Source of the DNA: Candidatus Woesearchaeota archaeon
Lineage (GTDB): Archaea > Nanobdellota > Nanobdellia > Woesearchaeales > UBA12501
Assembly: GCA_030651375.1 (NCBI GenBank)
Contig: JAUSFM010000003.1
Location: 184,718-248,717, forward strand
DNA length: 64,000 nt
Reading direction: 5' to 3'
Shown piece by piece: positions 5,554 to 40,318 of the stretch. The translations under genes and the position numbers were made by a program. The notes beneath the pieces are model-generated. The model did no database searches, was not told the origin of the DNA, and saw nothing but the letters and a program-made list of their open reading frames with translations. Position 1 is the first letter of the stretch. Every line of letters starts with the position of its first letter.

Positions 5554-6127
5554 GTATATTTAAAGTGCCTTCATACCTATAAAGTTTACTGTCTCCATCG
5601 GGACTGCGACGGAATAAATTTTGTTGGATCCAATAGTTAAGAGTATCGATTGCAGGAGATATTTGATCGTCACGTACCGGACCGCCTTTACTCACATCAA
5701 TCTTAAAATTATGCACTGATCTTTGTCCGGTTAATACATCAAATCTTCCGTACATAACTGTCAAGGGTGAAGAATCAGGAACGCCAAAAGCTTTTTCATA
5801 TTCTGAACTGTTCAAAGTGTTATGATCAATCGCCACCCTGAAAAACGCAACCTGCCCTTGATATTTATCAGCCAATGTCTCAACAACTTGTTCCATACGG
5901 TGTGAATATTCAAGTGTCCCATCATTTTTCAAATCTGTGTCTGCTTCGTAAAATAGAACAACAACCGGCTTTGGATTGTGATAAACTTTTTGAGAGAAAT
6001 TGGTAGGTGTCAACTCTTCAAGCGGACGTGCCGCAGCAACACTGGATGCGCCAAAGACTGCGGCGCCGGCTGCCAAAGCTGCGCTAAGGCGCAAAAACTC
6101 ACGGCGAGTAACGTCTGTTAAGCTCAT
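5531..6127 (-). CDS. Tat-signal thioredoxin-like protein
   Basis: N-terminus TRREFLRLSAALAAGAAVFGASSVAAA is a twin-arginine signal; remainder (PVVVLFYEAD...) resembles thioredoxin-fold redox proteins. Confidence 0.55.
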   Translation of the reverse strand: MSLTDVTRREFLRLSAALAAGAAVFGASSVAAARPLEELTPTNFSQKVYHNPKPVVVLFYEADTDLKNDGTLEYSHRMEQVVETLADKYQGQVAFFRVAIDHNTLNSSEYEKAFGVPDSSPLTVMYGRFDVLTGQRSVHNFKIDVSKGGPVRDDQISPAIDTLNYWIQQNLFRRSPDGDSKLYRYEGTLNIHEVGELR

Positions 6128-6271
6128 TTTAAGGGTTTATAAAGCAAGGGGGTTTATAAGACTTGCGGATAGGGAGGATATGGGGGTTTGTTTGATTGTA
6201 GGTTAGGTGCAATATTACTCAGCACGTCCATGTTAGAAACATTTATTAATTTCTTATAAATAGATGATACT

Positions 6272-6961
6272 ATGAAAGATGAAATTTTATCTTATCGTGA
6301 AATGTGTAACAAGATTCAAGTGAATACCATTCAAAGAGGGATGAATTTTCATATAAAAAAAGGCATTTCTGTTATTTTAATGTCAGTCAGACCTGGTGCC
6401 CCATATGATGATGAGATAGACATTGGGAAAAATTTATTGATTTATGAAGGCCATGACGTTCAAAAATCAAAACAAAATCCTGAACCAAAGAAGATTGATC
6501 AACCTAGATGGACAGATAATGGAACATTGACAGAAAATGGCAAATTTGTGAAAGCAGTAGAAAATCATAAAAAAGGATTGATTCCTCCAGAAAAAATACT
6601 GGTTTTTGAAAAGTTAAATTCGGGGATTTGGTCAGAAAAAGGATTATTTTCTTTAATTGATTATGAGACAAGAATTTCAAATGATAGAAAAGTTTTAAAG
6701 TTTATACTCAAACCGATTGATGAAAATATTGATATTCCAAAAGGAAAAGATGATGATGAACATAATAGACTTATACCAACACAAGTTAAAGTAGCCGTTT
6801 GGAAAAGAGACAAAGGTAACTGTGTTCTTTGTGGTTCGACCAAGAACTTACATTATGACCATGATGTGCCATTTTCTAAAGGGGGAAGTAGTATAACTGA
6901 AAAAAATGTCAGAATTTTGTGTGCTAAATGTAATTTGAAAAAGCATGATAAGATAGAATAA
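6272..6961 (+). CDS. HNH endonuclease-domain protein with uncharacterised N-terminal domain (possible type IV restriction-like enzyme)
   Basis: C-terminus CVLCGSTKNLHYDHDVPFSKGGSSITEKNVRILCAKCNLKKH is a canonical HNH/ββα-Me motif; sits in AT-rich island. Confidence 0.65.
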   Translation: MKDEILSYREMCNKIQVNTIQRGMNFHIKKGISVILMSVRPGAPYDDEIDIGKNLLIYEGHDVQKSKQNPEPKKIDQPRWTDNGTLTENGKFVKAVENHKKGLIPPEKILVFEKLNSGIWSEKGLFSLIDYETRISNDRKVLKFILKPIDENIDIPKGKDDDEHNRLIPTQVKVAVWKRDKGNCVLCGSTKNLHYDHDVPFSKGGSSITEKNVRILCAKCNLKKHDKIE

Positions 6962-7026
6962 GAGGTTGTTTTATTTCATTCTTCCTCATTTTTTCTCGGC
7001 CTTTTTTCCTCGTCAAAAAGATCGTG

Positions 7027-7165
7027 TTCCGGCAAAACCGGAATATTTCCGGAATTTCAGTGTTTTTTCGGAAATATTCCGAAACAACCGGATGTTTTTC
7101 CGGTGGCGCCGAAAATCTTCCGGTTTTTTCACAGCAAGGCTTATTAAGCAGAGTATCTGATATTC
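7027..7165. promoter_or_regulatory. Repeated intergenic module copy 1: cluster of TTCCGG-N5-CCGGAA palindromes followed by conserved CAGCAAGGCTTATTAAGCAGAGTATCT (TATA-like)
   Basis: gttccggcaaaaccggaat, atttccggaatt, ttcggaaatattccgaa, ccggatgtttttccggtggcgccg; about 70 percent identical to 49444..49585. Confidence 0.6.
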
Positions 7166-7192
7166 TTGAAACCCGCTGCGCGGAGCGGAACA

Positions 7193-7384
7193 ATGGCAAA
7201 AAATGCATTGCCCCAGTTTGAGGGTTATACAGTCGATCTACGACTTAGACAGTTTAGGAAAATAACAAAAACAAAGATGGAATTTGTTGATTTTTATTCA
7301 GTTAAAGGGGGAAAAATGGTCTCGAGATATATCAACTTTTTGAATGATCAGTTGGAGAGGATTGCCCAATATCAAAAAAATTAA
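7193..7384 (+). CDS. Small hypothetical protein downstream of repeat module
   Basis: ORF 7166..7384; start MAKNALP at 7193 about 30 nt after TATA-like element. Confidence 0.3.
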   Translation: MAKNALPQFEGYTVDLRLRQFRKITKTKMEFVDFYSVKGGKMVSRYINFLNDQLERIAQYQKN

Positions 7385-7404
7385 GAGGAGCTATTAAAGG
7401 GAAT

Positions 7405-9327
7405 TTAAATTTTCATCCTTGATCTAAAATAGTTTTCTACTTCTTTATCTACAAAATAGACATAACATCCTTTAATTCCCCTTGACATCAATACCCTATA
7501 AATGTTTTTTACATATTCATCAAATTTAAGTCTATCCTTCTTTTTTTTCAACATTGGGTCTTTAGTTCCCCCAATATCGGTGATTAGGCACTTATTTTTA
7601 GAATCATATTTAAGATCAGGACCAACAATTACTCCAACATAATCAAATTCAAATCCCTGAACGGTATAGATACAACCAACCTGTTTTATTCCCTCAGGTT
7701 TGTATGCCCATTCATACCAAGGCACATACCCTTGTGGTGGCTTGATATTCCCATGTGTCTCCCAAGGCAAACTAAAATCTTCAATTTTTACATCCCTTAC
7801 CAGATTCCCAGTTTGATCAAGTTCTGTTGACCACGGCCAACAATAACCTGCAACAAGTCTTGCAGTGACTCCTTTTTGAGAATTTTTTTCAGTTATAGTT
7901 TGATAAAGAAGTTTAGGAGAATTAAATATTTGAAAATCGAAGTTATCTTCTTTTGTTAAAATCAGTTTTGTTGAAGTATGACCAAGAACAGATTCGAGCC
8001 AATCCAAATAGTTGTCAGAACCATTGCACCTGAATTGAGATAACAACTCTGTTTCTTCGATTCTTTTCCCAAGTTTTTTTGCTGATTCTCTAATCAGGTT
8101 AGTGTTTCCAACTTCCGCACCCCTAATAACTTGCCGGTCATCAATAAAAAAGATCGATGTTTTCGCACACCTAATCAGTTGTTCTATCTGCGGCATATTT
8201 GTTCTGTACTCTTTTTTGGTAAAACGATGATCTGATTTTTCACCAATTCTATGAGCTTCGTCAACAATCAAAATATCTAGTTCGTTTTCATTAATTCGAG
8301 CAGGAACAAAAGGATTTAAGTTAGTAAATAAAACTTTTGCATTAATGTCCCCCACTTTTTGCCCATGTTCCATCTTATATTTGATTGCTTCAATCAAAGG
8401 TTTAGATCTAGATGCAAAAAAAATCTTATATTTCTTTTCTTTATTTGCTGCAAATTCAGCTAAAATATGCAGTGCAATCACTGTCTTTCCAGTTCCGGGT
8501 GCACCTTTCACTATTATTGCACTGTTTTCTTGGTTATGTTCTGCTTTTTTTACTTTGTCGATGATAAGATTTCTTGCATAAATTTGATCATCAAGCAGAT
8601 TAAAATCAGATTCATTTTTTATAACGTTTGAAGCATTATCTAAAAGTTTTCTTGAAGGTCTTTTAGGAGATTCCATAAATTTGTTAAAAATATCAAATCC
8701 GTCTTTTTTACTAAGTAAAAATTTTAGTCTAGCTGCTAGTATCTCGATGTCACTTTTCGTGTAAATTGGAAACTTTGCTATGAGTTCTTTATATCGGGGG
8801 TCAAATAAACCTTCCATTCCCTCAAAGTTGTAGTTTGGACAATAGACACACCCAACAAGACAAGTATCACTTTCTTCAAATATTTCTACAAACCCGATCA
8901 GATAATTATGATAACCCTGAACCTGTTGCGAAGGGTGTGCAACTTTTCTTTTGTCGCCCCCAGTATAAGTTTCCACAAAGTTTCCTTCTGCAGAAAGCGC
9001 TTCAACTGATTCCCATTGTTTCATCTCAATATGGATGATCATCCCTCTTCCTTCTTCATTTTTTCCAAACAATAAACAATCAATTCTTTTTTGCGTATAA
9101 GGAACTTGATACTCAAAAGAAAGATAAATATCCTGCAATTCACTTAATTCAAGAATGTTTTTGATCTCTTTTCCACTTTCCCTCCACGATCTACGTTCAG
9201 AATCGCCGGGTTTTCGACCATACAATCTCAAAAACTCGTTTTCCATCTTATCTGTGAATTTGTTTAGTACTACGTCTTTAAAGAACTCTTGTTGAGGTGC
9301 ATCATAAAGTAGTTCTCTGTTTAGCAT
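7405..9327 (-). CDS. DUF2075-family SF1 helicase-like ATPase with N-terminal PD-(D/E)xK nuclease-like domain
   Basis: 640 aa; N-terminal IDCLLFG...IIHIEMKQW (D...ExK); Walker A GAPGTGKT; Walker B ILIVDEAHR; C-terminal GIKGCYVYFVDKE typical of DUF2075. Confidence 0.75.
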   Translation of the reverse strand: MLNRELLYDAPQQEFFKDVVLNKFTDKMENEFLRLYGRKPGDSERRSWRESGKEIKNILELSELQDIYLSFEYQVPYTQKRIDCLLFGKNEEGRGMIIHIEMKQWESVEALSAEGNFVETYTGGDKRKVAHPSQQVQGYHNYLIGFVEIFEESDTCLVGCVYCPNYNFEGMEGLFDPRYKELIAKFPIYTKSDIEILAARLKFLLSKKDGFDIFNKFMESPKRPSRKLLDNASNVIKNESDFNLLDDQIYARNLIIDKVKKAEHNQENSAIIVKGAPGTGKTVIALHILAEFAANKEKKYKIFFASRSKPLIEAIKYKMEHGQKVGDINAKVLFTNLNPFVPARINENELDILIVDEAHRIGEKSDHRFTKKEYRTNMPQIEQLIRCAKTSIFFIDDRQVIRGAEVGNTNLIRESAKKLGKRIEETELLSQFRCNGSDNYLDWLESVLGHTSTKLILTKEDNFDFQIFNSPKLLYQTITEKNSQKGVTARLVAGYCWPWSTELDQTGNLVRDVKIEDFSLPWETHGNIKPPQGYVPWYEWAYKPEGIKQVGCIYTVQGFEFDYVGVIVGPDLKYDSKNKCLITDIGGTKDPMLKKKKDRLKFDEYVKNIYRVLMSRGIKGCYVYFVDKEVENYFRSRMKI

Positions 9328-9328
9328 A

Positions 9329-9691
9329 TTAATACTCCGTATATTTTTTGTTTAAACCTTTCACTGTCTCAACTGGATATTTTTGCTCATTTTTCTTCAT
9401 TTTGTGATCAAACTCAGTAGTAAGATCTATATCATATCGTTGTGCCAATCTGAGCAAAAAGTAGAATACATCAGCCATTTCTTCGGTTATTTCCTTTCGT
9501 TTGTTTAAATCATGAAACATACTTTCAACTTCTTTTTCGGATTTAAACCTAAAATGTTCCAGTAGTTCACTGGCTTCAGTTATGATTCCTATTGCTAAGT
9601 CCTTAGCATTATGATATTGATCCCAATCTCGTTCATCACAAAACGTTTTAACTTTTTCTTTTAATTCATTAATATTGGTTTTGTGGTCCAT
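9329..9691 (-). CDS. MazG-like nucleoside triphosphate pyrophosphohydrolase (small all-alpha NTP-PPase)
   Basis: 120 aa from MDHKTNINEL; EASELLEHF and EEMADVFYFLLRLA match MazG/YpjD-type motifs; stop TAA 1 nt before DUF2075 ATG (TAATATG). Confidence 0.65.
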   Translation of the reverse strand: MDHKTNINELKEKVKTFCDERDWDQYHNAKDLAIGIITEASELLEHFRFKSEKEVESMFHDLNKRKEITEEMADVFYFLLRLAQRYDIDLTTEFDHKMKKNEQKYPVETVKGLNKKYTEY

Positions 9692-9871
9692 AAGAGTAGT
9701 TAGATTAAAAGAGAGGTTTATAAAACTTGTCACGCTTCCAAAGCCTAGATTATCTGCTGATTTATAAAGACTAGATTGACAAAATGACAAGATATAAATA
9801 CCACCGAGAGTAGTATAATAAATTAAGAATGAATGTAGAAGAGGTGAAATACTAAATAAGATTCTTTTAGA

Positions 9872-10150
9872 GTGATAGATAAAAGTGATAGCGTGTCTCC
9901 TATGATGAAAACCGAATTTATGCAAGAAACAAAGAGATTTCAAGAGTTTGAAGATAAGGCTCTGAGCCAAGTTATGGAAGTTTCTAAAAGATTATTGGAA
10001 ACGTTTAGGTTTAGAAGGTTTTATGACTTATCTGTTTCTGAAGAGATTAATAAAAAGACACTTGAGGGAATAAGAGAATTCAGAAATAAGAATAAAATAT
10101 CACTCGATGATAGAGAGAGCTATCAAAGATATTTAAAATTAGTAGATTAG
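9872..10150 (+). CDS. Small hypothetical protein
   Basis: 92-aa ORF divergent from MazG-like gene. Confidence 0.3.
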   Translation: MIDKSDSVSPMMKTEFMQETKRFQEFEDKALSQVMEVSKRLLETFRFRRFYDLSVSEEINKKTLEGIREFRNKNKISLDDRESYQRYLKLVD

Positions 10151-10719
10151 AATTTTCTCTTCATCATCCATTGTTTAATTTCGGTTTCTTTTATTCTATC
10201 AGATTTAGCAAGTGGAATGATATTTAAACCTAACTCTTCACACGTCTTTAAAAATCCTGTGTCTCCTGAGTGAACGATGGTTATACCTTCAGCAAGAAAG
10301 CCTGCGATTATTATCACATCGTTCGGACCGATATGAAAACGCTGATTTTGTGTTTTTTCAACTACACGCTGATTATAAGTTTGCACATGTTGTTCTAGAA
10401 GATTATCAGATTCACGAGTGATTTTTTCAAGAAGAAAGGTGTTGCATAGGTTTTGCCAAGCTTCTTTTGCTTCTATTTTTGTAAAATGATACTGGTTAAT
10501 CAGGACACCAATGACCTCAGAAACTGAGATTTCATGATAATAAAATAAGTTTGGAGGAAAAGCAAAATGCCCTTTCTTAAACTGGTTAAAATCTCCTGCA
10601 AAAGCAACAATAATGTTTATAAGGGTACTTGAGTCTAAACCATTTTTTACAATACCCTTGATTGAAAGCTGGCCTGAAAGGACATAATAGGTACTTTCTG
10701 TTTTTTGATTTGTTGTCAT
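10147..10719 (-). CDS. Hypothetical protein (possible nuclease-like)
   Basis: Start MTTNQK; C-terminal DVIIIAGFLAEGITIVHSGDTGF acidic cluster; no firm family assignment. Confidence 0.35.
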   Translation of the reverse strand: MTTNQKTESTYYVLSGQLSIKGIVKNGLDSSTLINIIVAFAGDFNQFKKGHFAFPPNLFYYHEISVSEVIGVLINQYHFTKIEAKEAWQNLCNTFLLEKITRESDNLLEQHVQTYNQRVVEKTQNQRFHIGPNDVIIIAGFLAEGITIVHSGDTGFLKTCEELGLNIIPLAKSDRIKETEIKQWMMKRKF

Positions 10720-10941
10720 AAATTGCCCCTTTAGTATTAAATCAGAAGCAGCCAAGGGATTGCCCACTCCCCTGGACCACCCCTTTATGATACAAAAAAT
10801 GATTAAACTATTTAAAGATTGTGTTTAAAACTCACCTTTTCCATACTGTTCCACACACTTTTATCTTTCCTATTAATCACAATATTTATCCATCCCCCTG
10901 TCCACCACACTGCACACGTTCGCCGCAATCGCCCACACACC

Positions 10942-11151
10942 TCACTTCCCCCACCCTCTTACCTTTGTCCCACAGCCATACATCTTTCTTTCATGCCAGC
11001 AGTCGCAGCAGAGCCGTGCGATTGATTCGTTGACCGCATTACGCGCCTTTGCCCAGGTTAGACCGTGTTTTAACTGAATTCTCTGTTTGAGTAAGAATAA
11101 TTCATCATCAACGTCGGCGAGAATTTGTTGTTTTTGCGTTAGTTTAACCAT
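10942..11151 (-). CDS. Small hypothetical protein, possibly ribbon-helix-helix/antitoxin-like
   Basis: 69 aa; MVKLTQKQQILADVDDELFLLKQRIQLKHGLTWAKARNAV pattern. Confidence 0.25.
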   Translation of the reverse strand: MVKLTQKQQILADVDDELFLLKQRIQLKHGLTWAKARNAVNESIARLCCDCWHERKMYGCGTKVRGWGK

Positions 11152-11258
11152 GCTACCACCTCAAGCTTCGCTCATTGATTATGTGATGGTTATATATCTT
11201 ACGCATATCACGATATTATGCCGACAACGCCACAACAGTTATAAACCTCATAGGTTTT

Positions 11259-11795
11259 ATGATCGAAATGGGGCTTGACATCTTCGAAGATATTGTTGCA
11301 ACTTGGTTACAAACTAACGGATATTTTATGATGAACAATATTAGGTATGGTCATAACCAAGAGATTGATGTTTTAGCAACAAAATTGGGAAAGAATGGAA
11401 TTATTCACATTGAAGTTTCCTGTTCATCAAATCCTAGTGATATTGTGGGAACAAAGAATCACGAAAAAATTGGTTATGAACAAGCAGCAATAAATTTTGC
11501 AGAAAAGAAATTCTTTAATAAAGAAGTCAAGGGAAAAATTCTTGCTTTGTCTGGTCAGGAACCGAAAGAGAGATGGTTTATCCATGCAATAATGGACGAA
11601 CCGAAGCAGTTGGATATACTACGCGAAAAAGGTATTAAACCGATCAACATTAAAGATGTGATAAAAGATATTCAATCATCAGATCTGAGGGATTCTTCAG
11701 GAAATAAGAGGATAAAACAGCTTTTTGATATAATCAAAAAGATTAATGAGCAACAGAGCATCTCCACCCCATCACATCAACATCCACCTTTATGA
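11259..11795 (+). CDS. Hypothetical protein with restriction-endonuclease-like (Hjc-like) core
   Basis: NQEIDVLA...GIIHIEVS resembles PD-(D/E)xK core strand pattern. Confidence 0.35.
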   Translation: MIEMGLDIFEDIVATWLQTNGYFMMNNIRYGHNQEIDVLATKLGKNGIIHIEVSCSSNPSDIVGTKNHEKIGYEQAAINFAEKKFFNKEVKGKILALSGQEPKERWFIHAIMDEPKQLDILREKGIKPINIKDVIKDIQSSDLRDSSGNKRIKQLFDIIKKINEQQSISTPSHQHPPL

Positions 11796-11798
11796 ACA

Positions 11799-12404
11799 TC
11801 ACGCATAGTCCTTTTGATTGAGTATTTTATTCTTGAAATGGGTCAGCGCGCATTTTTTGGAGCAGAAATAAACTTGGCGACCCTTCCAAGTTCTTTCGTT
11901 ACACCTAAACATATAAAAGAGATATAGTTTTTGTGCGTCAGCTTTGCAATTTGCGCATGATATACTTTTTTTCTTTTTTAGGCATACGCCTTCAAAGCAA
12001 GATTGAAGCAATGCAGGAGTAAGTTTTTTCTTTTCTTTGGTGGTGAGGCGAACACCGAGAAACGTGCCGATGCGAGTATTGATATCGGGGTACTTTGAGG
12101 CGTTTAGTTTCTTGATTTGAGGAGAGGAAATCTTGCGAATACAATCGAAAGAGCAGACGCGTTCACCTGTACTGATAGCTGATGAATTGAGAAGATTTTG
12201 TTTATAAAAAGAGAATTCGAATTGTGCACCCTTTTTTCCACAGACAGTACAGGGGTTTGATACGCCATTCTTGGCGAAGGTGATGACTTTATCCCAGTTA
12301 ATATTCAGTTCGTCAAATTCTGTTAAGTTATTGATAGGAGAAGAATCAAAGGGATAAAAAGTAGTATACAAAAAATTTTCAATTTTGTTTTTTAATATAC
12401 TCAT
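11799..12404 (-). CDS. Cys-rich (zinc-finger-like) hypothetical protein
   Basis: Start MSILK; two CxxC...C clusters (CTVCGKKG, CANCKADA...CSKKC). Confidence 0.4.
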   Translation of the reverse strand: MSILKNKIENFLYTTFYPFDSSPINNLTEFDELNINWDKVITFAKNGVSNPCTVCGKKGAQFEFSFYKQNLLNSSAISTGERVCSFDCIRKISSPQIKKLNASKYPDINTRIGTFLGVRLTTKEKKKLTPALLQSCFEGVCLKKKKSISCANCKADAQKLYLFYMFRCNERTWKGRQVYFCSKKCALTHFKNKILNQKDYA

Positions 12405-12728
12405 GCTGCACACCCCCATAAAGTTCCGACAGGGGAAGAGTATAAAAAAGTTTCTTGTCACTGAAAAGGAGGTTGATTAACAGTGATTTAAATAAGGAGA
12501 TAATCCCGTCACAACCTTTAAATTACCCATCCTGTCTTGTCCAGTGGTTGGATGTGCCATCACGCAACCATTCCACACCTCCAGAAAAATATTCAGGGCA
12601 CATTAGGAGCATTGTGATTAGATGATGACCGGGTGTGCAGTGCCACATGCTATGAGGTGGCATGCAGAAAGAGGTATGGGTGAACTACCGCTGGCTGAAG
12701 CCCACGAGTTCAGGCGCTGCCTGCGCCC

Positions 12729-13250
12729 TTAAAGTAATTTCTCCATCTCGAGCATGAATTCTTTCGCTCTGTTCAGGGAAGTGGTTGCCTTGCCATGGAG
12801 TTCAGCTTCTTTCATTTCGTATTGGACATCGCTTCTCTTCTTCCTTTCAAAGTCAAAAGTCTCAATCAAAGCGTCTGTTTTTATGCCGGCGAGCGCCTCC
12901 TGTTGGGCTTTTTCATATTCTTCAAGCAGTGATTTTTTCAGTTTGTTTCTGACAAAGACAATGAGGGCATCGGCAGTTATTTTGTGGGATATCTTTTCCC
13001 CTATTTTGTATCCGAGTTTGTAGAGGACAGCATTGGCACTATAGTACATCGCATAGTAGGACGTAACAATAATCCACAAATCAGATTTCTTGTTTTGAAG
13101 CAGGAAACCAGCAATCTCAAGGCTATCCTTGGCATTTCGGCGCAAGATGGTATAAATAGGTTCCTGAAAGGATTGCTTTTTTAGGAGCCCGTCTTCAATG
13201 TATGCACGGACATTTTTTTCAGCTTCCTTAATTCTTGGTTCATCGAGCAT
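12729..13250 (-). CDS. HEPN-like domain protein, partner of upstream nucleotidyltransferase
   Basis: 173 aa all-alpha; 11-nt overlap with MNT gene; canonical Rx4-6H not clearly visible, call from context. Confidence 0.4.
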   Translation of the reverse strand: MLDEPRIKEAEKNVRAYIEDGLLKKQSFQEPIYTILRRNAKDSLEIAGFLLQNKKSDLWIIVTSYYAMYYSANAVLYKLGYKIGEKISHKITADALIVFVRNKLKKSLLEEYEKAQQEALAGIKTDALIETFDFERKKRSDVQYEMKEAELHGKATTSLNRAKEFMLEMEKLL

Positions 13251-13809
13251 TCGCGATCATCCGGTAATAGTCTTCTATTCCGAACAGAATAATGTTGTTT
13301 TTTATTGCTTCTGAAACAACGGTAAATTCTGTAGACTTGAGCATTGTCTGGAAATCAGCATACGTAATGGACGTGAGATGAATAGGTAAAGGAAGGAGAT
13401 TAGCTTGTTCTTCTATCTGTTCTGGCCGGTCGGTGATGAGAAGCAAGTCAATATCAGAATGGGTTGTTTGCTTTTTTTTCGCATGAGAGCCAAAGAGGAG
13501 TAAAATAAACTGTTGGTTTATTCCTCTGAAGCGGGAGTACAGTACGTTAAAGTTCTTATTGCGCGTTAATTCCTGCAGCCGGTGGTGTTCTACCGTAAAA
13601 ACAGAAGCATTGAAGTTTCGGTTAAAAGAACAGATGATGGTGTTTCCGTGCCGCACGGCGCTGATAACCCCTTCGCCCTGCAGTTTTTGCACGGCACCAT
13701 ACGCTGATTTGTAGTTTATTTTTCGTTTGAGAGCAATCTGCCGGATACTCAAATTGAGCTCTTGATGCTCTATAAGCAGGCGGAGGATGTTCAGTTTTTC
13801 ATTATCCAT
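13240..13809 (-). CDS. Nucleotidyltransferase (MNT) domain protein with N-terminal wHTH
   Basis: LLFGSHAKKKQTTHSDIDLLLI matches minimal nucleotidyltransferase GS-x9-DxD motif; N-terminal HTH-like region. Confidence 0.6.
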   Translation of the reverse strand: MDNEKLNILRLLIEHQELNLSIRQIALKRKINYKSAYGAVQKLQGEGVISAVRHGNTIICSFNRNFNASVFTVEHHRLQELTRNKNFNVLYSRFRGINQQFILLLFGSHAKKKQTTHSDIDLLLITDRPEQIEEQANLLPLPIHLTSITYADFQTMLKSTEFTVVSEAIKNNIILFGIEDYYRMIANAR

Positions 13810-13984
13810 TGTTAACCATACTAGTATGGTTTGTAACCATATATTTAAATGTTTCGGTACTGAAACAGTTAAAAGTGGTGAAATGCATGGCCAAAAAGGA
13901 GGAAATGAGTCGGCTACAGATTGTAGTCAACTGAAAACATATTTAGGAGTGGCAAATAATTCATCCCCGCCCAACTCGTTCTCT

Positions 13985-14398
13985 TCACGCTTCAGCCGCA
14001 CATTCAGTATACGAATCAGCAAGGCCGTAGCGGTCGCTGACGGCGGTTGTTATTTGCTGGGTGAAGTTTTCTGTATGGGGAAGCAAGGATATGAGCTTAT
14101 TCCTCGCTTTTCCAACGAATTTGAGCTGGATCGTGAGCGCATTCTTTTCAAGGCGCGCTTTGAAATCGCAATGGATGATATTTTTGAGGGTGTATTTGAC
14201 GACGCCGAAAATGCGTGAGGCATCAAATATCCGTACGCCGGTGACAAAGCCGAGGTCGTCAATATCCGCGACAAAGTTGTGGAATTCAACGGATTGCTTA
14301 TAGTTCCGATTTTTTATTTTGAAGGTGAGAATATCATGTGCATAATCGTATATAATCTCTCCTTCATCTTTCGCGTCAAGGTGTTTGTTGGTTTTCAT
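13985..14398 (-). CDS. DUF2283-family small protein
   Basis: IIYDYAHDILTFKI...DIDDLGFVTGVRIFDAS resembles DUF2283 N- and C-terminal signatures. Confidence 0.5.
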   Translation of the reverse strand: MKTNKHLDAKDEGEIIYDYAHDILTFKIKNRNYKQSVEFHNFVADIDDLGFVTGVRIFDASRIFGVVKYTLKNIIHCDFKARLEKNALTIQLKFVGKARNKLISLLPHTENFTQQITTAVSDRYGLADSYTECAAEA

Positions 14399-14730
14399 GG
14401 GAGTGTGAAATGAGGAATTTCAACGGTGTCCATAAAGGACACAATAACGATTTTGTTTTTTTCTTTTTCAAGGATGAGCTTTCGATAGCCATCATTTCGG
14501 CGGTAATACGCTGCGTAACGGCCATTTTCTTGGATATATACTTTTCTTGGATTTTCTCGGACTACCATAAAGGTAAGCTCTTCTTCTTTAAAAACTTTTC
14601 TTAGGGCCTCTGACAGATGGTCGAACGCATGAGGCGAAACGATAACAGGGTGATTATGTACGAGCAATTTAAAATCCTTGCTTTCAATCTCTTGTATCGG
14701 TCGTGTAGTATAAAATTTCACATATTTCAC
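14395..14730 (-). CDS. DUF4258-family protein (toxin-like partner of DUF2283)
   Basis: HAFDHLSEALRKV motif; ATGA overlap with downstream DUF2283 gene. Confidence 0.5.
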   Translation of the reverse strand: MKYVKFYTTRPIQEIESKDFKLLVHNHPVIVSPHAFDHLSEALRKVFKEEELTFMVVRENPRKVYIQENGRYAAYYRRNDGYRKLILEKEKNKIVIVSFMDTVEIPHFTLP

Positions 14731-16358: not shown

Positions 16359-19300
16359 CTACGTCGTGCCTGCGCTGCTCGTCACTTCCCCATAGATCTC
16401 ATCCACGCGTTGGGCAACCAAGTTTCCTAATTCAGTGTAGATGCCGCGGGTAAACGCGTTGTCACATTCAGGAACGTGGTTGCATTGGGCGGCGTATGCT
16501 GAAACTTTTGCAGCAACCTCTGGTTTATGGGCTTGGACGCAGTCAACGGTGATGCCGTTGAGGCAGATAAGTTCCATATCGTTTGCAAATCGCTGGGCAA
16601 GTTGAGTACCATCAGCGGCAGTCGGGAGCGTCGTAACCGCCGGTGGCGCAAGTTTTTTCTCAAGCCGGAGATCGAGGAGCACATCAGAAATCGTGCCGAG
16701 AAGCGTGTCAACTTGAGCGTCATACGCGTCAGTGCACGAAGTGATAGCGGTACAGAGCCCGCGGTATTGGTCGTCTTGCGCAAGGACAAAGTCTTTATTG
16801 GTGTTGAGGCAGTCTTCGGTTATGCCGCCCGGACAAATTCTGCTGACACGCTCGACAAAGCTGCCGGCGTATTGCGCGCCGGCTTCTTCTGGTGATGCGA
16901 CAGCAGCGACAGTTGGTGAGGCAGCAGCATACTGTTCAACCGCCTGCAGCACTGTTGCCTTGAATGTGCACCAGTCAAACAGTGGCCCGGGATCTTCATG
17001 GCCACCATACACGCCGTTGGGTTGGCCAGCGGTAAATCCTTCGCAGGAATAGCCAGAGGTGCCGTCGACATACTGCGGCCTGCCGATGGTGCTGTGGAAA
17101 TAGATGTGGTCAATGCTGATGCCGTAGCGTACCATGATTTCGGCAACGGTTTTTGCCAGTGTTTTCATTTGCGCATCGGGGAATGGTTCCCAGTATCTGG
17201 TCCCGCCAGGATAGCTCCACGCTTTTCCGTGCACCATGTTGAGCTGGTTGCGCACATCAATACATCCAGAACAGGGACTGTTGCCGGCATAATTCGCGAG
17301 GTCGATGCCGATGGCTTGACTGTTAATTCCGGGCTTTGCGCAGGCAGGATTATTGGCGCTGCAGCCTGCATGATACGTGATAATATCTTCTTGTTCGATT
17401 TGGATCATCGATCCATCGCGGTCAATGATGAAGTGCGTACCTACTTTTTCTCCATCGCTGTTAACTCCTTTGAAAAAGATATTTTTGTACGTGTCATACG
17501 CTGACGAACTGCCTGCAGTGATGTGAATAACGATGCTGCTGATTTTGCTACTTGAACGTATGGGCCGATCTACCGTGTCAGCGCGCGCATGGAACGCACA
17601 ATCATCGTCAGGTCCGCAGGCAGTTGCCGGATTTAAGTCGACAGAACCATAGCTTCCGAGTGTCACGATCTGCGGCGTGAATGGCCCTGAAATAACCGGC
17701 CCAATAGTTCCGGGGGTTGGTGTTGATGCGCCGGTGCCTGGAGCAGATGGCCCCGGAGAAACTGGTGGAACACTTGCCGGCCGCTGCGCACAGAGCGTCG
17801 CTGCCTGCGCTGGATTTTTCACAAAGGAGTCTTTGTCAGACACACAGGCATACTGCGCGCTATTCGGCGCAGGGCAGGGCACGCAGAAATTTCCAAATCC
17901 GCATTCCATATCGGTTGCACCGCCGAGCTTGCCGTTGCAGTCGCAAATATTTTGGTTGTTTGACGGGTCAACATACAATCCGTTGTTTTTGTCGGTGGTG
18001 GTGCACGCCTCGTAGCCGATGCACGAACCGGATGCAGAGCAGTAGTTGAGCCCTTGCGCAATGCCGCAGCGGCTTGAGGTAGAGGTACCCACACAATTAC
18101 ATTCTTGGTTCACGAATGCGTTGGATGTGCATGCAGGCAATTCGCCGGTGGCAGTCACTTTACTGCATGCAACTGGAATGTCAATCGCGTCTGCGCCGGT
18201 GAATTCGAGCGCCTTGCCGCCGAACCGCGCGACCGCGTCGCCGGGAATGCAGGTGTCCGGTCCGGGAATGTCGTTTTCAAATCGGGTCTTGCACGGGCGA
18301 AGCTCAAGAGATAATTTCCAGTGCACGGGATTTTGTGCTGTGATGTCGTCGCACTGGGTTGCCGCTGCGCGCTGTTGTGCGAGGAAGGCGATGCCGTCAG
18401 CGTAGAGTTTTCCTGGAAGAACCGAACCGTACTCTGGCTGGATGCGAAGCCCATGGTACGAAATAGTGCCGAGCGCGCTGTCGAAGCGGTAGATATTATT
18501 TTTCAGCAGGGCGGTTGTCGACGGTGAAAGTCCGGACGCGGAAAGTTCTGCGTCAGTGCAGGGGATAGCACCCGGCACAATTTCAAACTGGTAATTTCTG
18601 CTTCCTTCAAGGAGTTTTGCAAGGTCATCGCTCAACGATGCGTGCTGCACACTGTAGCAGAACGCGTCTCTGCCTGCGGCATCTTTGGTCCGGAACATCA
18701 ACAGGCCAACCGCGAGATTTTCGCGTGAAGGGTAACTAACATCAATCGACGGAAGACTGCGCAGGGGAAGTTTATTTCCGCCAGCTTCTGCAAAGTCTGG
18801 ATTGGTGTACGCAACAGTGCGCGCGTATCCTGCGGCGCCGCCGTACATACCGCGAGTGATCATATCTTCAGTCAAGACGACGCTGGGAATGGTGAACCGG
18901 GAAACGCCATCTTCAACAATCGCGCGCACCGCCATGGAGCGCGCGGCAGATGACGCAGCAGACGAACTGGTGGGTGCTGAAATCGTGCTGCCTGCGTACC
19001 GTTCGAGTGGAATGACATTACCGTTCTGGTCGCGCAGTTGGTACATCAGGAAGTACGGCACCTGCTGGCCGGCAAGTGAAAGTGCCTGTGCAACGTCGGG
19101 ACGGATAGTGCCTGCACGGTTGTTCGGGCTGTATTTTTCAAGCTCGACATCGACGTCAATCGGCTCGTTAACCATGAACACCGATTTGACCGGACGGGGC
19201 CGTTTCAGGAACGCTGCGCGCCCGAGTTGGCCGGCTGCGATTTCGCATTGGTATCCAGAAAGTTTGAACTGGCAGGAAAGCGGCGGCTCATCGCCAATCT

Positions 19301-22300
19301 GCTGAATTTCGATTATTTTTTCTTCAGTCTGGAAATTTCCCTGATTGTTCCGCCACTGCCAGTATAAGCGAACACGGTCAAAGCGATACGGAAGTTCTGC
19401 CGGAACATATGCGTCCATGTCGCCGTATTCGCCGGCTGCAAGCACGCCGGTGCCCATGAAGTTGGTGATGGGATAGCGTTTCTCGCCAATCTCTGCGCAA
19501 TCGCATTTGTTGTTGGCAAAGCCGTAGATTTGTTTGCAGTTTGTCGGGCTTGCAGTGCAGATAAGTTCTGCGCCGTAGGTTATTTCAGAGCCGGCGACAA
19601 GTCCGCCGGCGAGATGGTAAATAAATCGCGCGTTGCCGGTCACGGGATTGCTCGTCATGAATCGCCGCGTTTGTTTTGGATACAAAAAGCCCTCGCTCGC
19701 AACCGGCACGCTGCCGATGCCCGTCAAGGCACCTTCGATGTCAAGGTCGAAATCGCCGGTGAATGCGTAGAAGCACGCCGAGTGAATCAGGCTGCGTTCA
19801 TTAAGGATACTGTACAAATTTGATTTTCCATACCGGTCGGAAATCGCCGTGTGCATGTGCTCGCCGGCAGAGGAAACTGCTTTGAAAAAGCCGCTGATGC
19901 CCTGAAGCCGACCGCCGCCACCGCCGCCGGAGCCCGCACCGTAGCGCTGGGCAAAACATTTGACTGCTTCAATCAGGAAATCGCACAGTGTTTCTGAAAA
20001 CGCGCGCCGGCACATGCCGGTACTTCCTTCGCCTGTCAACAAAATGGATTGGAAGCACTGCCGGAACTGGACAAAGACGCGCTGGATAAGTGCAATATAG
20101 GTGTTGATGGCGGGCAGGCACATGCACCGGATTGAATTGACAATGCTGGACGTCGGGTCAACAACATAGTCGCGGTTCACCCGCGGCACGAGTCCGTATT
20201 TTTCCGCTTCTGCGCGTGTCAGGATTTTTTGGGGGAATTCAGGAACAAATTGTTCAAGCCCGCGGTCGTAGCCGACCACTTCGCCGGTTGCCGGATCTTT
20301 TCGCTCTTTCCGGTCAGCGTAGAATGTGCCGAGTTCCCACTGGCCATCTGCAATAAGCCGGAACCAGCGGTCGCGGATGGTGACTCTTTTTTTGTTGAGT
20401 GTTGGCTGGCTGTTGATTGCTTCAGTCACTTCAATGGTGCCATCGCGGGCAGGAAGTGTGCCGCCGTAGCGCACGCTGCCGACTAAGGGACGGACTTCTT
20501 CTTGGCAAATCGTTGAAGCGGATTCAACCGCCTGTCCGATGGGCCCGCCGCAGCTTTGTGCAGCGCGGGAAGATTTGGTTGCAGTGTCATAGATACATTC
20601 AGATTGCCGAAGCTCGTTGGTAAACCAGCACGCGCTGTCCCATTGATTGATGTATTCCTGCGCGCATTGTTTTTCCGGACTTGCGCCGGGCACTGTTGGA
20701 ATTCCAGAAAACGGAGTGAGCATTGACGACGATGAAGAGGAAAGCAATTCATCAGCAGCGTCGTACACTACCCCTTCGTTCATGCCGGGATTGCCGCACT
20801 GCGCTTCTTTTGCGTCGGCATTGGTGCTGCCGAGATCATAGTGCGCAGGATTAGTGGTGCCATCAGACTGAAGCGCGCGTGTCTTTGCCATGCTTGCCTG
20901 CGTGATGTGCACGGCGAGTGTGGGCGCTGCGGGACAGTACACGCGGTCGCATATCCATTTCATGTAGCGTTCGTAGTCCTTGCGTGACTCGCGCGACTGT
21001 ATGCATTGCTGTTTTTCAGGGCTGTCAGCTGCGTCGGCGTAGACGCCGGTGCAATCCAGTTTTTCGATGACAAGCTTGTAGTAGTACGCGGCAAAGCTGC
21101 CGAGGCAGGTTACAAATGTGCCGATCAAGACAAATTTCAGGTACTGCAAAATCTGGTTGAGCGTTTTGATTGCATCATCAAAAAAATGGATGGAATCTTT
21201 GAGCAGCCATGTGGGGAGCCAGCGCTCGTCAAGCTCAAGGTCGAGTGTCGTGACGACGTCAGTGCAGTGGAGTTGGGTGCGCGTAATTTTTCCAGCTCGG
21301 CCACCATACACGCCTGATGTTGAGGAAGGAGAGAGTGGTTGTTGGTAGTTTTGATATGAAGGACGGCCAGACACGCCGGAGATATACTGCGTGCCCGGTG
21401 GCGCCTGCGCTCCTGATGTTGCGGGTATGCCAGTGCCCATGCCGCTGGCGTCTTCGTATTCAAACAGCACTTCCATCTGCAATGGAATTTTTATGAGCAA
21501 ATCTTTTTTCGCGCTGATGTCACTGAGATTTTTTTGGAGGTAGGGAAGCTGGTTGAAGTTCACGACAATGCCGCCGACGGTGTAGTCATCACTCCAGGTT
21601 ACCTGCACGGGCTGACGCACGAGTGTTTCCGGATCAAATGCATAATCACGGCGGGCTTCAGTGCTCTGATGTAGTACGCGGAAACGAGGCGGCGACAAAA
21701 TAGTTGCACGGTCTGCGGGGCCGCGCCATTTCAGCTTGACGTTGAAGCCGAGCTGGGCAATGCCGTTGCGGAGATGCGCGGGGATGACGGTCGATGGAGT
21801 AATTTTTGATTGCTCAACTTCCCAGAAACCGCCGCTGCCGCACTTCGCAAACACAACCGACACCGGACCAGAAGTGGAACTTCTTCCAAGATCGTCCACA
21901 ACAAAAATCTGCAGCCTATTTTCAAACGTGCTGCCAACATCGTATTGCCTGCCGAAGGTGTTTGCCGACGAATCAAGCGGTTGCTGGGGCAGGTACTGCG
22001 TCAGGTTGGTCTGCACAAATTGAGTGAGGAGCACATCAATTGAAAATCTGCCGTCGGGTCCAGCAACAGCAGTATATTCTTTTTGCGGCGCCGCGCGCAC
22101 TGAAAGGCTTTTTACCAGATCGAGCAAGCTTGTGCTCCACGCGGAATTGGGAGTCACTTCATCATTGACGGTCACAAACACAACCGCGCCGGGCGTTGCA
22201 TTGCCGCGCACGGTGACTTTTTGTGTGTAGCTCGGGTTGAGTTCATTGAGGTTGTGCGAAAAGAGCTGGGGAGCAGGGCCGAGAATTTGAATTGTTTTTG

Positions 22301-23150
22301 ATTCCTGTTTTGTGTTGCCTGCTTCGTCTGCAAACACGAAATGAACGTCTGTTTTTTTGCCGATGTTCTGCGCAACGCTTTCAGAAACGGGAACACGAAT
22401 ATCAAATGCTCCGGCAGGCAGCTGCTGTTCGCTGACCGCGCCGCTGACGGTGATGGTCGCGACGATAGTTTCTGATGTTGTTCCTTTCAGCGCCAGCACA
22501 CCTTCAACAATGCTGATGTGCTGATCAAGTGAAACAACCGGCGCCACGGTATCAACCGTGACGTCGAATTCCTTGATGGTTTTCTGCACTGAGGTTTGGT
22601 TTGTTGCTTCATCAACAATTTCTTCAGCGCGGCCTTCGGCGATAACGACGATATGCGAAAGCCCTTCGTTGAGCGTGAAGGTGAGCGCGAATGCTCCTGC
22701 GCTGTCGGCAATGGTGATTGTGTGATACGATGTCGCGTTAGTAATCGGGAGTGCCGGATTGAGGTACGTTTTTACACGAGTGTGTGAATTGGTGGTGCCC
22801 TGCACCGTGAGCGTGCGCTTGTTTGTTTTTTTCGGCAGCTCAAGATTTAGCAGCACGCCGTATGCGCCGCGCTCGGATGAAAAGTTTCCGCCAGCGCCTT
22901 CTGCATCACTCGCGCCGTAGGGTGATGTTGGCAATGTGTCGGAGTATGCAGAAGTAGTTGAGGAGGAAGATGATGAATCAGATACATTTGAAGGGGTAGA
23001 AGAGGAGGATGGAGGCGTGTGCTCGTAGGTTGGCTGCGCGTGCACCACGGGTATGAGAATGACTAGGTACATGAAAAATGCCGCAATAATCTGTACGGTG
23101 TGCGCTGATTTCAGGCTCAAGTTCATGCTCATCCTCTTTTGTGTAGCCAT
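16359..23150 (-). CDS. Giant secreted surface protein (2263 aa) with Ig-like N-terminal region, Cys-rich repeats and a C-proximal N-acetylmuramoyl-L-alanine amidase (Amidase_2/PGRP) domain
   Basis: Signal peptide IIAAFFMYLVILIPVVHAQP; amidase signatures IVIHITAG, THFIIDRDGSMIQ, YHAG, NSQAIGIDL, HIYFHS, EDPGPLFDW at about 16970..17560; duplicated ICPGGITEDC / ICLNGITVDC modules at C-terminus. Confidence 0.8.
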   Translation of the reverse strand: MATQKRMSMNLSLKSAHTVQIIAAFFMYLVILIPVVHAQPTYEHTPPSSSSTPSNVSDSSSSSSTTSAYSDTLPTSPYGASDAEGAGGNFSSERGAYGVLLNLELPKKTNKRTLTVQGTTNSHTRVKTYLNPALPITNATSYHTITIADSAGAFALTFTLNEGLSHIVVIAEGRAEEIVDEATNQTSVQKTIKEFDVTVDTVAPVVSLDQHISIVEGVLALKGTTSETIVATITVSGAVSEQQLPAGAFDIRVPVSESVAQNIGKKTDVHFVFADEAGNTKQESKTIQILGPAPQLFSHNLNELNPSYTQKVTVRGNATPGAVVFVTVNDEVTPNSAWSTSLLDLVKSLSVRAAPQKEYTAVAGPDGRFSIDVLLTQFVQTNLTQYLPQQPLDSSANTFGRQYDVGSTFENRLQIFVVDDLGRSSTSGPVSVVFAKCGSGGFWEVEQSKITPSTVIPAHLRNGIAQLGFNVKLKWRGPADRATILSPPRFRVLHQSTEARRDYAFDPETLVRQPVQVTWSDDYTVGGIVVNFNQLPYLQKNLSDISAKKDLLIKIPLQMEVLFEYEDASGMGTGIPATSGAQAPPGTQYISGVSGRPSYQNYQQPLSPSSTSGVYGGRAGKITRTQLHCTDVVTTLDLELDERWLPTWLLKDSIHFFDDAIKTLNQILQYLKFVLIGTFVTCLGSFAAYYYKLVIEKLDCTGVYADAADSPEKQQCIQSRESRKDYERYMKWICDRVYCPAAPTLAVHITQASMAKTRALQSDGTTNPAHYDLGSTNADAKEAQCGNPGMNEGVVYDAADELLSSSSSSMLTPFSGIPTVPGASPEKQCAQEYINQWDSACWFTNELRQSECIYDTATKSSRAAQSCGGPIGQAVESASTICQEEVRPLVGSVRYGGTLPARDGTIEVTEAINSQPTLNKKRVTIRDRWFRLIADGQWELGTFYADRKERKDPATGEVVGYDRGLEQFVPEFPQKILTRAEAEKYGLVPRVNRDYVVDPTSSIVNSIRCMCLPAINTYIALIQRVFVQFRQCFQSILLTGEGSTGMCRRAFSETLCDFLIEAVKCFAQRYGAGSGGGGGGRLQGISGFFKAVSSAGEHMHTAISDRYGKSNLYSILNERSLIHSACFYAFTGDFDLDIEGALTGIGSVPVASEGFLYPKQTRRFMTSNPVTGNARFIYHLAGGLVAGSEITYGAELICTASPTNCKQIYGFANNKCDCAEIGEKRYPITNFMGTGVLAAGEYGDMDAYVPAELPYRFDRVRLYWQWRNNQGNFQTEEKIIEIQQIGDEPPLSCQFKLSGYQCEIAAGQLGRAAFLKRPRPVKSVFMVNEPIDVDVELEKYSPNNRAGTIRPDVAQALSLAGQQVPYFLMYQLRDQNGNVIPLERYAGSTISAPTSSSAASSAARSMAVRAIVEDGVSRFTIPSVVLTEDMITRGMYGGAAGYARTVAYTNPDFAEAGGNKLPLRSLPSIDVSYPSRENLAVGLLMFRTKDAAGRDAFCYSVQHASLSDDLAKLLEGSRNYQFEIVPGAIPCTDAELSASGLSPSTTALLKNNIYRFDSALGTISYHGLRIQPEYGSVLPGKLYADGIAFLAQQRAAATQCDDITAQNPVHWKLSLELRPCKTRFENDIPGPDTCIPGDAVARFGGKALEFTGADAIDIPVACSKVTATGELPACTSNAFVNQECNCVGTSTSSRCGIAQGLNYCSASGSCIGYEACTTTDKNNGLYVDPSNNQNICDCNGKLGGATDMECGFGNFCVPCPAPNSAQYACVSDKDSFVKNPAQAATLCAQRPASVPPVSPGPSAPGTGASTPTPGTIGPVISGPFTPQIVTLGSYGSVDLNPATACGPDDDCAFHARADTVDRPIRSSSKISSIVIHITAGSSSAYDTYKNIFFKGVNSDGEKVGTHFIIDRDGSMIQIEQEDIITYHAGCSANNPACAKPGINSQAIGIDLANYAGNSPCSGCIDVRNQLNMVHGKAWSYPGGTRYWEPFPDAQMKTLAKTVAEIMVRYGISIDHIYFHSTIGRPQYVDGTSGYSCEGFTAGQPNGVYGGHEDPGPLFDWCTFKATVLQAVEQYAAASPTVAAVASPEEAGAQYAGSFVERVSRICPGGITEDCLNTNKDFVLAQDDQYRGLCTAITSCTDAYDAQVDTLLGTISDVLLDLRLEKKLAPPAVTTLPTAADGTQLAQRFANDMELICLNGITVDCVQAHKPEVAAKVSAYAAQCNHVPECDNAFTRGIYTELGNLVAQRVDEIYGEVTSSAGTT

Positions 23151-23180
23151 GGTTGTTTCGGTTTTGCCCTTTTTATGTTT

Positions 23181-25142: not shown

Positions 25143-25186
25143 TTCGCTTTATAAATATTATGACTGAAAACAGTGCGAAAATGGCG

Positions 25187-26017: not shown

Positions 26018-26031
26018 CTTAATTTTTGATT

Positions 26032-31386: not shown

Positions 31387-31425
31387 GCGTTGTCTCTTTT
31401 CTTTTTTGTCTCTTAAATGTTTTTC

Positions 31426-40266: not shown

Positions 40267-40318
40267 ATAATCCCTGTGAAGAGTTTGATAAACCCTTGAA
40301 TACTCACCGTCCAACGCG

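Follow-up and report, generated by a model that had tools for sequence, protein, structure and literature searches.

What an intergenic module built of short palindromes is doing in a small archaeal genome is the question raised by a 64,000-nt stretch of DNA from Candidatus Woesearchaeota archaeon (GTDB lineage Woesearchaeales; GenBank assembly GCA_030651375.1, contig JAUSFM010000003.1, positions 184,718 to 248,717 of the forward strand), which is referred to below as the window. An earlier note, made from the letters of the window, described a module of about 140 nt that occurs twice, at 7.0 kb and 49.4 kb, and carries inverted repeats of the form TTCCGG-N5-CCGGAA. It read the module as a promoter with an operator array for a dimeric regulator or, alternatively, as a non-autonomous repeat element. 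The analysis presented here supports the reading of the element as a phased transcription-factor array placed before an archaeal promoter, with an unusual and coherent set of targets, the tRNA-Leu genes. The module is probably a promoter cassette, in which an array of nine phased sites for an oligomeric regulator stimulates a weak TATA box and co-regulates the tRNA-Leu family together with a few small genes.

The presence of two copies, here named A and B, was borne out by blastn, which aligned window positions 7004-7158 and 49421-49574 on the same strand over 155 nt with 73.5% identity (E=4e-21). A profile search of the 64-kb window revealed no third copy inside it. With up to one mismatch allowed, TTCCGG-N5-CCGGAA matched at five positions of the window (7027, 7098, 49444, 49494 and 49514), all of which fall within the two copies. 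Only 0.16 matches were expected and none of 100 shuffles reached five, confirming both the palindromes described in the two copies and a motif frequency above expectation in the window. The two copies are also the most CCGG-dense 120-bp stretches of the window (6 occurrences against a mean of 0.62). A link to CCGG avoidance or methylation was considered and dropped, as CCGG is not depleted window-wide (observed/expected 1.18). Unlike CCGG, the tetranucleotides GATC and CTAG are strongly under-represented across the window (observed/expected 0.42 and 0.45, respectively).

The conserved tail CAGCAAGGC(T/A)TATTAAG(C/A)AGAGTATCT was likewise recovered in both copies (7132-7158 in copy A), and each copy is followed by a hairpin and a small gene as had been claimed, namely an open reading frame (ORF) of 63 codons after copy A and an RNA gene after copy B. 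The shared ttccggtggcgccg...ttccgg core is present in both copies, but in copy A it forms palindrome 3, whereas in copy B it forms palindrome 2. Since these are different lattice positions, the core is a coincidence of spacer sequence and not a homologous block.

Each copy is organised as a lattice of nine half-sites, in which TTCCGG and CCGGAA alternate and most half-sites have at most one mismatch. Counted from the first T of the first palindrome (P1), the half-sites lie at offsets 0, 11, 20, 41, 50, 61, 70, 81 and 90 in all well-preserved copies, and a tenth lattice position, near offset 31, is empty. The G+C content follows a period of 10.0 bp (summed spectral power 19.3 vs a maximum of 6.9 in 1000 shuffles), which places all of the half-sites on the same side of the helix. 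Two parses of the lattice are possible, either as three TTCCGG-N5-CCGGAA palindromes plus three single half-sites, or as four CCGGAA-N3-TTCCGG boxes, the centres of which are at 7045, 7075, 7095.5 and 7116 in copy A (spacings of 30, 20.5 and 20.5 bp). The share of A/T was 68% in the N3 centres and 47% in the N5 spacers (Fisher p 0.0015, an approximate value since the copies are related). The final half-site ends about 10 bp upstream of the B recognition element (BRE)-like sequence AGCAAGGC, which is followed by ATATTAAG and then, in recognisable form in seven of ten copies, by AGAGTATCTTA.

These ten copies come from the same genome, from orthologous loci and from other genomes and metagenomes. 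In addition to copies A and B, a search with an eight-copy profile detected a third same-genome copy (L009:224-359(-), E=2.3e-27) about 3.3 kb to the left of the window start, so that the genome holds at least three copies within about 57 kb. L003 is the syntenic locus of a relative, with flanking proteins of 57-76% identity, and carries the module at the same place; L010 is the locus of the only homologue of the 63-aa ORF (84% identity), and the module stands upstream there too. Because the gene upstream of L010 differs from that in the window, the left boundary of the module could be set at TCGTC(GAY)AAAAA, about 17 nt further out than the edge given by the earlier note. No Pfam match was found for the 63-aa ORF itself. 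A gapped pattern consisting of P1 and the tail (25 specified bases and 27 gap lengths, with an estimated 0.03 or so chance matches in 1.2e12 bases) retrieved five more loci, L004 and L005 in GTDB genomes and L006-L008 in metagenomes. This pattern would miss the third same-genome copy, in which the tail reads GGAAGGC. The tail-only pattern GCAAGGCNTATTAAGNAGAGTATC gave no matches in the genome-contig and viral-contig collections, and a head pattern gave none in the viral-contig collection. No synteny of L005-L008 with copy B was found. L004 belongs to a Woesearchaeota metagenome-assembled genome (MAG). The L005 contig (CAYPAC010000014.1), which carries the module and an intron-containing tRNA-Leu gene, is labelled as a Methanosarcinales MAG; either it is mis-binned or the module is present beyond Woesearchaeota. 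Module orientation and distance to the downstream gene are constant in all ten copies, every one of which points at the gene.

Column identity between the copies was 72-89% in the half-sites and 33-65% in the spacers, while fourfold-degenerate sites of the flanking genes were 55% identical in the window/L003 pair. As judged from these identities, the half-sites and their spacing are under purifying selection and the spacers drift at an approximately neutral rate, and conserved half-sites among near-neutral spacers are the signature of protein-binding sites. In the eight-copy alignment, no covariation was detected in the palindromes, with one double change vs a shuffle mean of 1.3. The first palindrome never varies, which is partly by construction, whereas 56% of the cells of the second palindrome are paired and every departure breaks a pair. 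The lack of compensatory change indicates that the half-sites are DNA sites and not RNA helices. Rfam at the gathering threshold reported only three standard tRNAs in the whole window, and with E values up to 10 it gave only noise around both copies.

Because the host is an uncultivated DPANN archaeon, the TATA-like tail should be read as an archaeal BRE/TATA element. Most genes of the window have TTTATAAA, the TATA consensus of the genome, about 25-35 nt before the start codon, an arrangement known from archaeal promoters whose transcripts are leaderless mRNAs. The other tRNA TATA boxes in the window are located 28-34 nt upstream of their tRNAs. At L005, which lacks any other TATA box, the distance from the start of TATTAAG to the tRNA 5' end is 30 nt; thus the tail sits where a promoter is expected, and we infer that it is an active one. 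ATATTAAG was present in all copies, and the core GC(A/T)TATTAAG was invariant in the five copies that are free of search-pattern constraint (A, B, L003, L009c and L010). As ATATTAAG departs from the usual TTTATAAA, it is sub-optimal for this genome and probably represents a weak TATA box.

All of the half-sites are upstream of the TATA box, with no overlap with the BRE/TATA element or with the predicted start. In archaea, sites restricted to the upstream side are typical of activators rather than repressors. The term upstream activating array therefore describes the module better than a repressor-type operator. Bacterial promoter readings (TTGACA-N17-TATAAT and the sigma-54 type GG-N10-GC) were rejected owing to a poor fit and an archaeal host. 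A leader peptide in the A-rich leader of copy B was rejected as well; L006 and L008 lack its ATG, and comparison of the window with L003 and L007 showed that its frame is not conserved.

Seven of the ten copies are located upstream of class-II (long variable arm) tRNA-Leu-like genes, which have five or six different anticodons and unrelated contexts. The remaining three are upstream of ORFs; in copy A and L010 this is the 63-aa orphan ORF, and in L004 it is an ORF situated after EF-1alpha and S10. The module is absent at tRNA-Gly, tRNA-Thr and tRNA-Val in the window and at tRNA-Arg in L006. In raw form, the module-linked tRNA sequences were detected by neither ARAGORN nor Rfam because of 22-34 nt inserted in the T-loop. 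After in silico removal of the insert, ARAGORN called five of six tRNA genes, compared with none of the six before. The calls were Leu(aag) in the window (49689-49806), Leu(cag) in L006, Leu(gag) in L005, Leu(taa) in L008, and "Phe(gaa)" with a long variable arm in L003; the L007 tRNA, which has a CAG loop, was not called, and the L009 tRNA (L009:1-115(-)) has a GAG loop. The insert was predicted to fold into the T stem, a 3-nt bulge, a 4-bp UUCA:UGAA helix, a second bulge and an intron hairpin, the sequence of which is different in every locus. On the basis of this modelled fold, the insert is most likely a non-canonical bulge-helix-bulge (BHB) intron.

The module-linked tRNA-Leu-like genes all have G73, and tRNA-Leu usually has A73. 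Odd anticodon loops were also observed: the window gene (AAG) has A34, and position 37 is a pyrimidine in L003 (CUGAACA) and L009 (UUGAGUU). Among the other tRNAs, the tRNA-Thr(GGU) orthologue of L003 (L003:3368-3453) has an anticodon-loop intron, which the window gene (49116-49187) is without, and ARAGORN miscalled the L003 gene as tRNA-Pro.

At six loci (copy B, L003, L006, L007, L008 and L009), a segment of about 50-70 nt, here named 'up', lies between the module and a second TATA box, which is 28 nt before the tRNA. 'up' is a degenerate copy of the 5' half of the tRNA. Where the D arm would be, it has a stable hairpin of its own, and part of it matches the 5' anticodon stem and loop of the neighbouring tRNA identically or almost so; in the window, AGAGACTAAGAACC occurs at 49625-49638 and again within the tRNA at 49716-49729. 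In the five loci scored, alignment of 'up' with its own tRNA scored 28-46, compared with 11-22 for other tRNAs. Between the window and L007, which are close relatives, the anticodon region has six differences, all of which recur exactly in 'up', and either gene conversion or selection, the latter perhaps as a decoy or antisense RNA, would keep 'up' and the tRNA in step. RNAalifold gave no consensus structure for 'up', for which the alignment was poor, and each locus has its own hairpin. At L003, which is in synteny with copy B, the tRNA shares 85% identity with the L009 tRNA and only 65% with the copy-B tRNA of the window, whereas the L003 module is closer to copy B and L007. From this discordance, the unit of 'up' and tRNA seems to have been exchanged between loci.

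The second TATA box comes close to being a palindrome, and after it stands a conserved (C/T)TTTCG, whose reverse strand gives a BRE-like CGAAA(A/C). It is a speculation that this box is bidirectional and that the reverse transcript would be antisense to the anticodon arm of the tRNA, with its end at an oligo-T run, which the reverse strand has as the complement of the A-rich leader. The module, 'up' and the tRNA could even constitute a single Woesearchaeota-specific regulatory cassette, in which an amino-acid-responsive, Lrp-like array would drive a mimic of the tRNA-Leu 5' half whose identity with the cognate anticodon arm is maintained, and the mimic or an antisense RNA would modulate the maturation, modification, cleavage or use of the cognate isoacceptor. 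This proposal is tentative and, taken as a whole, quite unlikely.

For the module as an activator-dependent promoter cassette, the following mechanism is proposed. A weak BRE/TATA element, (G)CATATTAAG, is preceded by about 100 bp with nine alternating half-sites, one per helical turn. A dimeric sequence-specific protein would occupy these half-sites cooperatively on one face of the helix and would probably bend or wrap the DNA. When bound at the promoter-proximal site, about 10 bp upstream of the BRE, the protein would help TBP (the TATA-binding protein) and TFB (transcription factor B) to load onto this poor TATA box. The protein would thereby bring the genes of the tRNA-Leu family, along with a few genes for small proteins, under control as one regulon. 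The fixed geometry, the purifying selection, the lack of RNA covariation and the TATA box at promoter distance support the earlier reading of a promoter with an array for a dimeric regulator; from such features we infer protein binding, activation and an Lrp-like binder.

A protein of the Lrp/AsnC family, also known as feast/famine regulatory proteins (FFRPs), is the leading candidate for the binder, on architectural grounds only. The optimal sites of FFRPs have the form abcdeWWWe'd'c'b'a', and FL11 prefers CCGAAA[AAT/ATT]TTTCGG (PMC2715240), from which the CCGGAA-N3-TTCCGG box of the module differs by one base per half-site. In Lrp-like operators, the sites are on one helical face at distances of 2 or 3 turns with about 100 bp of wrapped DNA, and in the case of activators one dimer site is placed a few bp upstream of the BRE (PMC2995911). 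The boxes of copy A follow this layout in face, in spacing (2 or 3 turns) and in overall length (about 100 bp). The FFRP arrays, such as the three-box operator of Ss-LrpB, the FL11 sites and those of Ptr2 at fdxA/rb2, resemble the module in having palindromic 13-15-bp boxes on one face, with the proximal box near the BRE/TATA element. Unlike them, the module has centres that are not strictly A/T and a denser lattice with a half-site every turn and two overlapping parses, and its targets are tRNA genes, which were not found among the listed Lrp targets. The pairing of a "leucine-responsive" protein family with tRNA-Leu is suggestive, though speculative; many FFRPs of archaea have other ligands or none at all (PMC2995911). 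No candidate regulators were found near the copies.

Several points weigh against the proposal of an activator array at tRNA-Leu genes. The Lrp assignment is weak, as the N3 centres do not strictly match WWW and the lattice is equally well parsed as TTCCGG-N5-CCGGAA. No AsnC/Lrp (HTH_24) domain was found in the 50 window ORFs scanned, although a sample of 64 kb gives this result little weight. P1 and the tail are invariant in L004-L008 by construction, since the search pattern required both, and the copies are related by descent, so the counts and p-values are not independent. The association with tRNA-Leu may be partly due to co-duplication of the promoter together with its gene; as a counter to pure co-duplication, the selection on the half-sites suggests that the array functions in each copy. 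At five loci the tRNA has its own canonical TATA box, and there the module would drive 'up', perhaps with read-through, and not necessarily the tRNA.

Among the alternatives, it is conceivable but unlikely that the same array acts negatively, with a repressor or chromatin-like protein that coats about 100 bp and wraps or occludes the DNA, or that it positions an archaeal histone particle. The 10.0-bp G+C periodicity is a classic signal of wrapping or nucleosome positioning, and some Lrp-like proteins are repressors or dual regulators (PMC2995911); however, no sites lie over the BRE/TATA element or the predicted start, which is the usual place of archaeal repressors. Moreover, it is the exact hexamer TTCCGG that is conserved and not merely G/C-rich sequence, and a weak TATA box fits dependence on an activator.

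The other possibility raised by the earlier note, a non-autonomous mobile repeat similar to a miniature inverted-repeat transposable element, or an arm of an integrating element beside tRNA genes with the half-sites as recombinase or transposase sites, appears very unlikely. Such an element would account for at least three dispersed copies within about 57 kb, for the position of copy A in a low-GC island (33-36% G+C) and for the partial tRNA copy adjoining copy B and five others, a partial tRNA copy being the mark of mobile-element integration in Caldiarchaeum (PMC3293823). The disagreement between the tRNA and module phylogenies, by which cassettes have seemingly been shuffled, points in the same direction. 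However, the module has neither terminal inverted repeats nor target-site duplications, and its left edge, TCGTC..AAAAA, bears no relation to its right edge, ATCTTA. The constant orientation and gene distance of all ten copies are not those of a dispersed repeat, and the 50 ORFs scanned included neither an integrase nor a transposase. In addition, the interval of about 35-50 bp between 'up' and the tRNA leaves no room for an element, and the tail at L005 is the only plausible promoter of its tRNA.

It is highly improbable that the module is a transcribed structured RNA, that is, a leader or small RNA made up of several 6-bp hairpins. The palindromes could fold as hairpins and there were weak sub-threshold Rfam matches, but covariation was absent, the changes were pair-breaking and no Rfam family reached the threshold; furthermore, the module precedes the TATA box and follows oligo-T runs, at which incoming transcripts would be terminated. 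Least probable of all is an iteron array of a replication origin (with elements like origin recognition boxes, ORBs) or of a partition locus (parC-like), for which the phased repeats and a TCC-GTGG-like core reminiscent of ORB elements speak, but which is contradicted by at least three same-orientation copies per genome next to tRNA genes, by the absence of adjacent orc1/cdc6 or par genes among the window ORFs scanned, by the lack of a GC-skew inflection at either site and by the lack of a flanking AT-rich unwinding element with inverted ORBs.

Apart from the FFRP arrays, the module partly resembles other known systems. Escherichia coli Fis has upstream activating sites at rRNA and tRNA promoters, including tandem P1/P2 promoters. 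The Fis sites are similar in being helically phased upstream of stable-RNA promoters, with the regulated promoter in tandem with a gene-proximal one; however, they belong to a bacterial sigma-70 system and have another motif, whereas the host of the module uses TBP and TFB. The operators of methanogen NrpR (GGAA-N6-TTCC) and the boxes of MsvR (TTCG-N7-8-CGAA) are short inverted repeats of the TTC/GAA type, bound near promoters by dimeric archaeal regulators. They differ from the module in spacing and core, and they overlap or follow the promoter, serve in repression and number one to three sites, compared with the nine of the module. The centromere iterons of the parC/ParR type flank a promoter and comprise about ten repeats with 10-11-bp phasing, bound cooperatively on one face, but they are direct repeats on plasmids beside partition genes, whereas the half-sites of the module are inverted, chromosomal and beside tRNA genes. 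Nothing directly relevant was found in the literature on TTCCGG in archaeal promoters or on upstream activating sequences of archaeal tRNA genes.

The features of the two window copies and of their downstream genes are listed in Table 1.

Table 1. Positions in the window of the two module copies, their component sites and the elements downstream
Feature	Position	Strand	Description
Module copy A, whole	7010..7159	+	TCGTC + A-tract boundary, nine-site lattice, BRE/TATA-like tail; blastn, and nhmmer vs copy B and eight external copies
Copy A P1 TTCCGGcaaaaCCGGAA, lattice sites 1-2	7027..7043	.	Sequence, motif search
Copy A site 3 TTCCGGAA	7047..7054	.	With right half of P1 forms box I, CCGGAA-TAT-TTCCGG, centre 7045
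Copy A sites 4-6	7068..7093	.	Box II TCGGAA-ATA-TTCCGA, centre 7075; P2 TTCCGAaacaaCCGGAT
Copy A box III CCGGAT-GTTT-TTCCGG	centre 7095.5		
Copy A sites 7-9	7098..7123	.	P3 TTCCGGtggcgCCGAAA, then box IV CCGAAA-ATC-TTCCGG, centre 7116
Copy A BRE-like CAGCAAGGC and TATA-like TTATTAAG	7132..7148	+	Core conserved across copies
Copy A conserved block AGAGTATCT	7150..7158	+	Between TATA box and predicted start (about 7166-7170); putative role
Copy A 5'-untranslated region hairpin CCGCT-gcgcgg-AGCGG	7173..7188	+	Contains GGAG Shine-Dalgarno-like motif; identical in L010
63-aa orphan ORF after copy A	7193..7384	+	One homologue
Module copy B, whole	49424..49575	+	blastn, profile search
Copy B sites 1-3	49444..49469	.	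P1 TTCCGGcacatCCGGAA, then TTCCAG
Copy B sites 4-9	49485..49539	.	TCAGAA, P2 TTCCGGtggcgCCGGAT, P3 TTCCGGattcgCCGGAA, TTACGA
Copy B tail CAGCAAGGC, ATATTAAG, AGAGTATCT	49548..49574	+	Predicted start near 49584 (GGGAAAAAAAG...)
'up', partial degenerate copy of downstream tRNA 5' half	49602..49652	+	GGCGAT, hairpin TGCAGG..CCTGCA, AGAGACTAAGAACC, hairpin AGCTT..AAGCT
Copy B downstream hairpin	49608-49623		
Second, canonical TATA box TATAAATA	49661..49668	.	28 nt before tRNA 5' end
Class-II tRNA-Leu(AAG)-like gene	49689..49806	+	34-nt T-loop BHB intron at about 49760-49793; oligo-T run 49809-49818

The surroundings of the copies were surveyed as well. Window positions 6000-14700, approximately, form a low-GC island (33-36% vs about 50%) that holds copy A and the 63-aa orphan ORF, and has the appearance of an accessory or defence island. 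Its other genes include those for an HNH endonuclease, a MazG-like protein, a Schlafen-group-3-like helicase and a HEPN/nucleotidyltransferase pair. Three giant ORFs (2263, 1784 and 1204 aa) occupy 16359-35040 (-) in a stretch of higher GC (50-55%), and two adjacent paralogues of the EF-2/EF-G family are found at 38068-40314 (-) and 41094-43238 (-). The window also encodes the archaeal ribosomal proteins L7Ae, S28e and L24e and an archaeal-type prepilin peptidase. A 179-aa protein encoded downstream of copy B is identical to one recorded at NCBI for a Candidatus Woesearchaeota MAG. A sigma-70 homologue of 740 aa (51063-53285, +) has regions 1.2, 2, 3 and 4 with a C-terminal HTH_3 domain, and its L003 counterpart shows 40% identity; sigma-70 genes have been reported previously in Woesearchaeota (PMC8204110). 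A protein of 218 aa (58589-59245, -) has a C-terminal Fis-type HTH_8 domain by Pfam and, by eye, a second similar helix-turn-helix in mid-sequence, which suggests that it might bind DNA as a pseudo-dimer. The paired half-sites are a conceivable target, but nothing links the protein to the module.

The regulation of transcription in the DPANN archaea is essentially uncharted, and no description of regulated, isotype-specific tRNA transcription in archaea was found in the literature. The T-loop-intron tRNA-Leu genes are missed by standard annotation, which affects estimates of the tRNA complement and of genome completeness. The module provides a searchable cis-element, with a profile, a nine-site lattice and a set of target genes, for the definition of a regulon in Woesearchaeales, and it raises the question of why leucine tRNAs in particular should be co-regulated. 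The tRNA-half mimic 'up' is the part most likely to hold something new; if the module, 'up' and the tRNA do act as one cassette, it would mean that an archaeon of reduced genome size controls its tRNA supply in an isotype-specific way.

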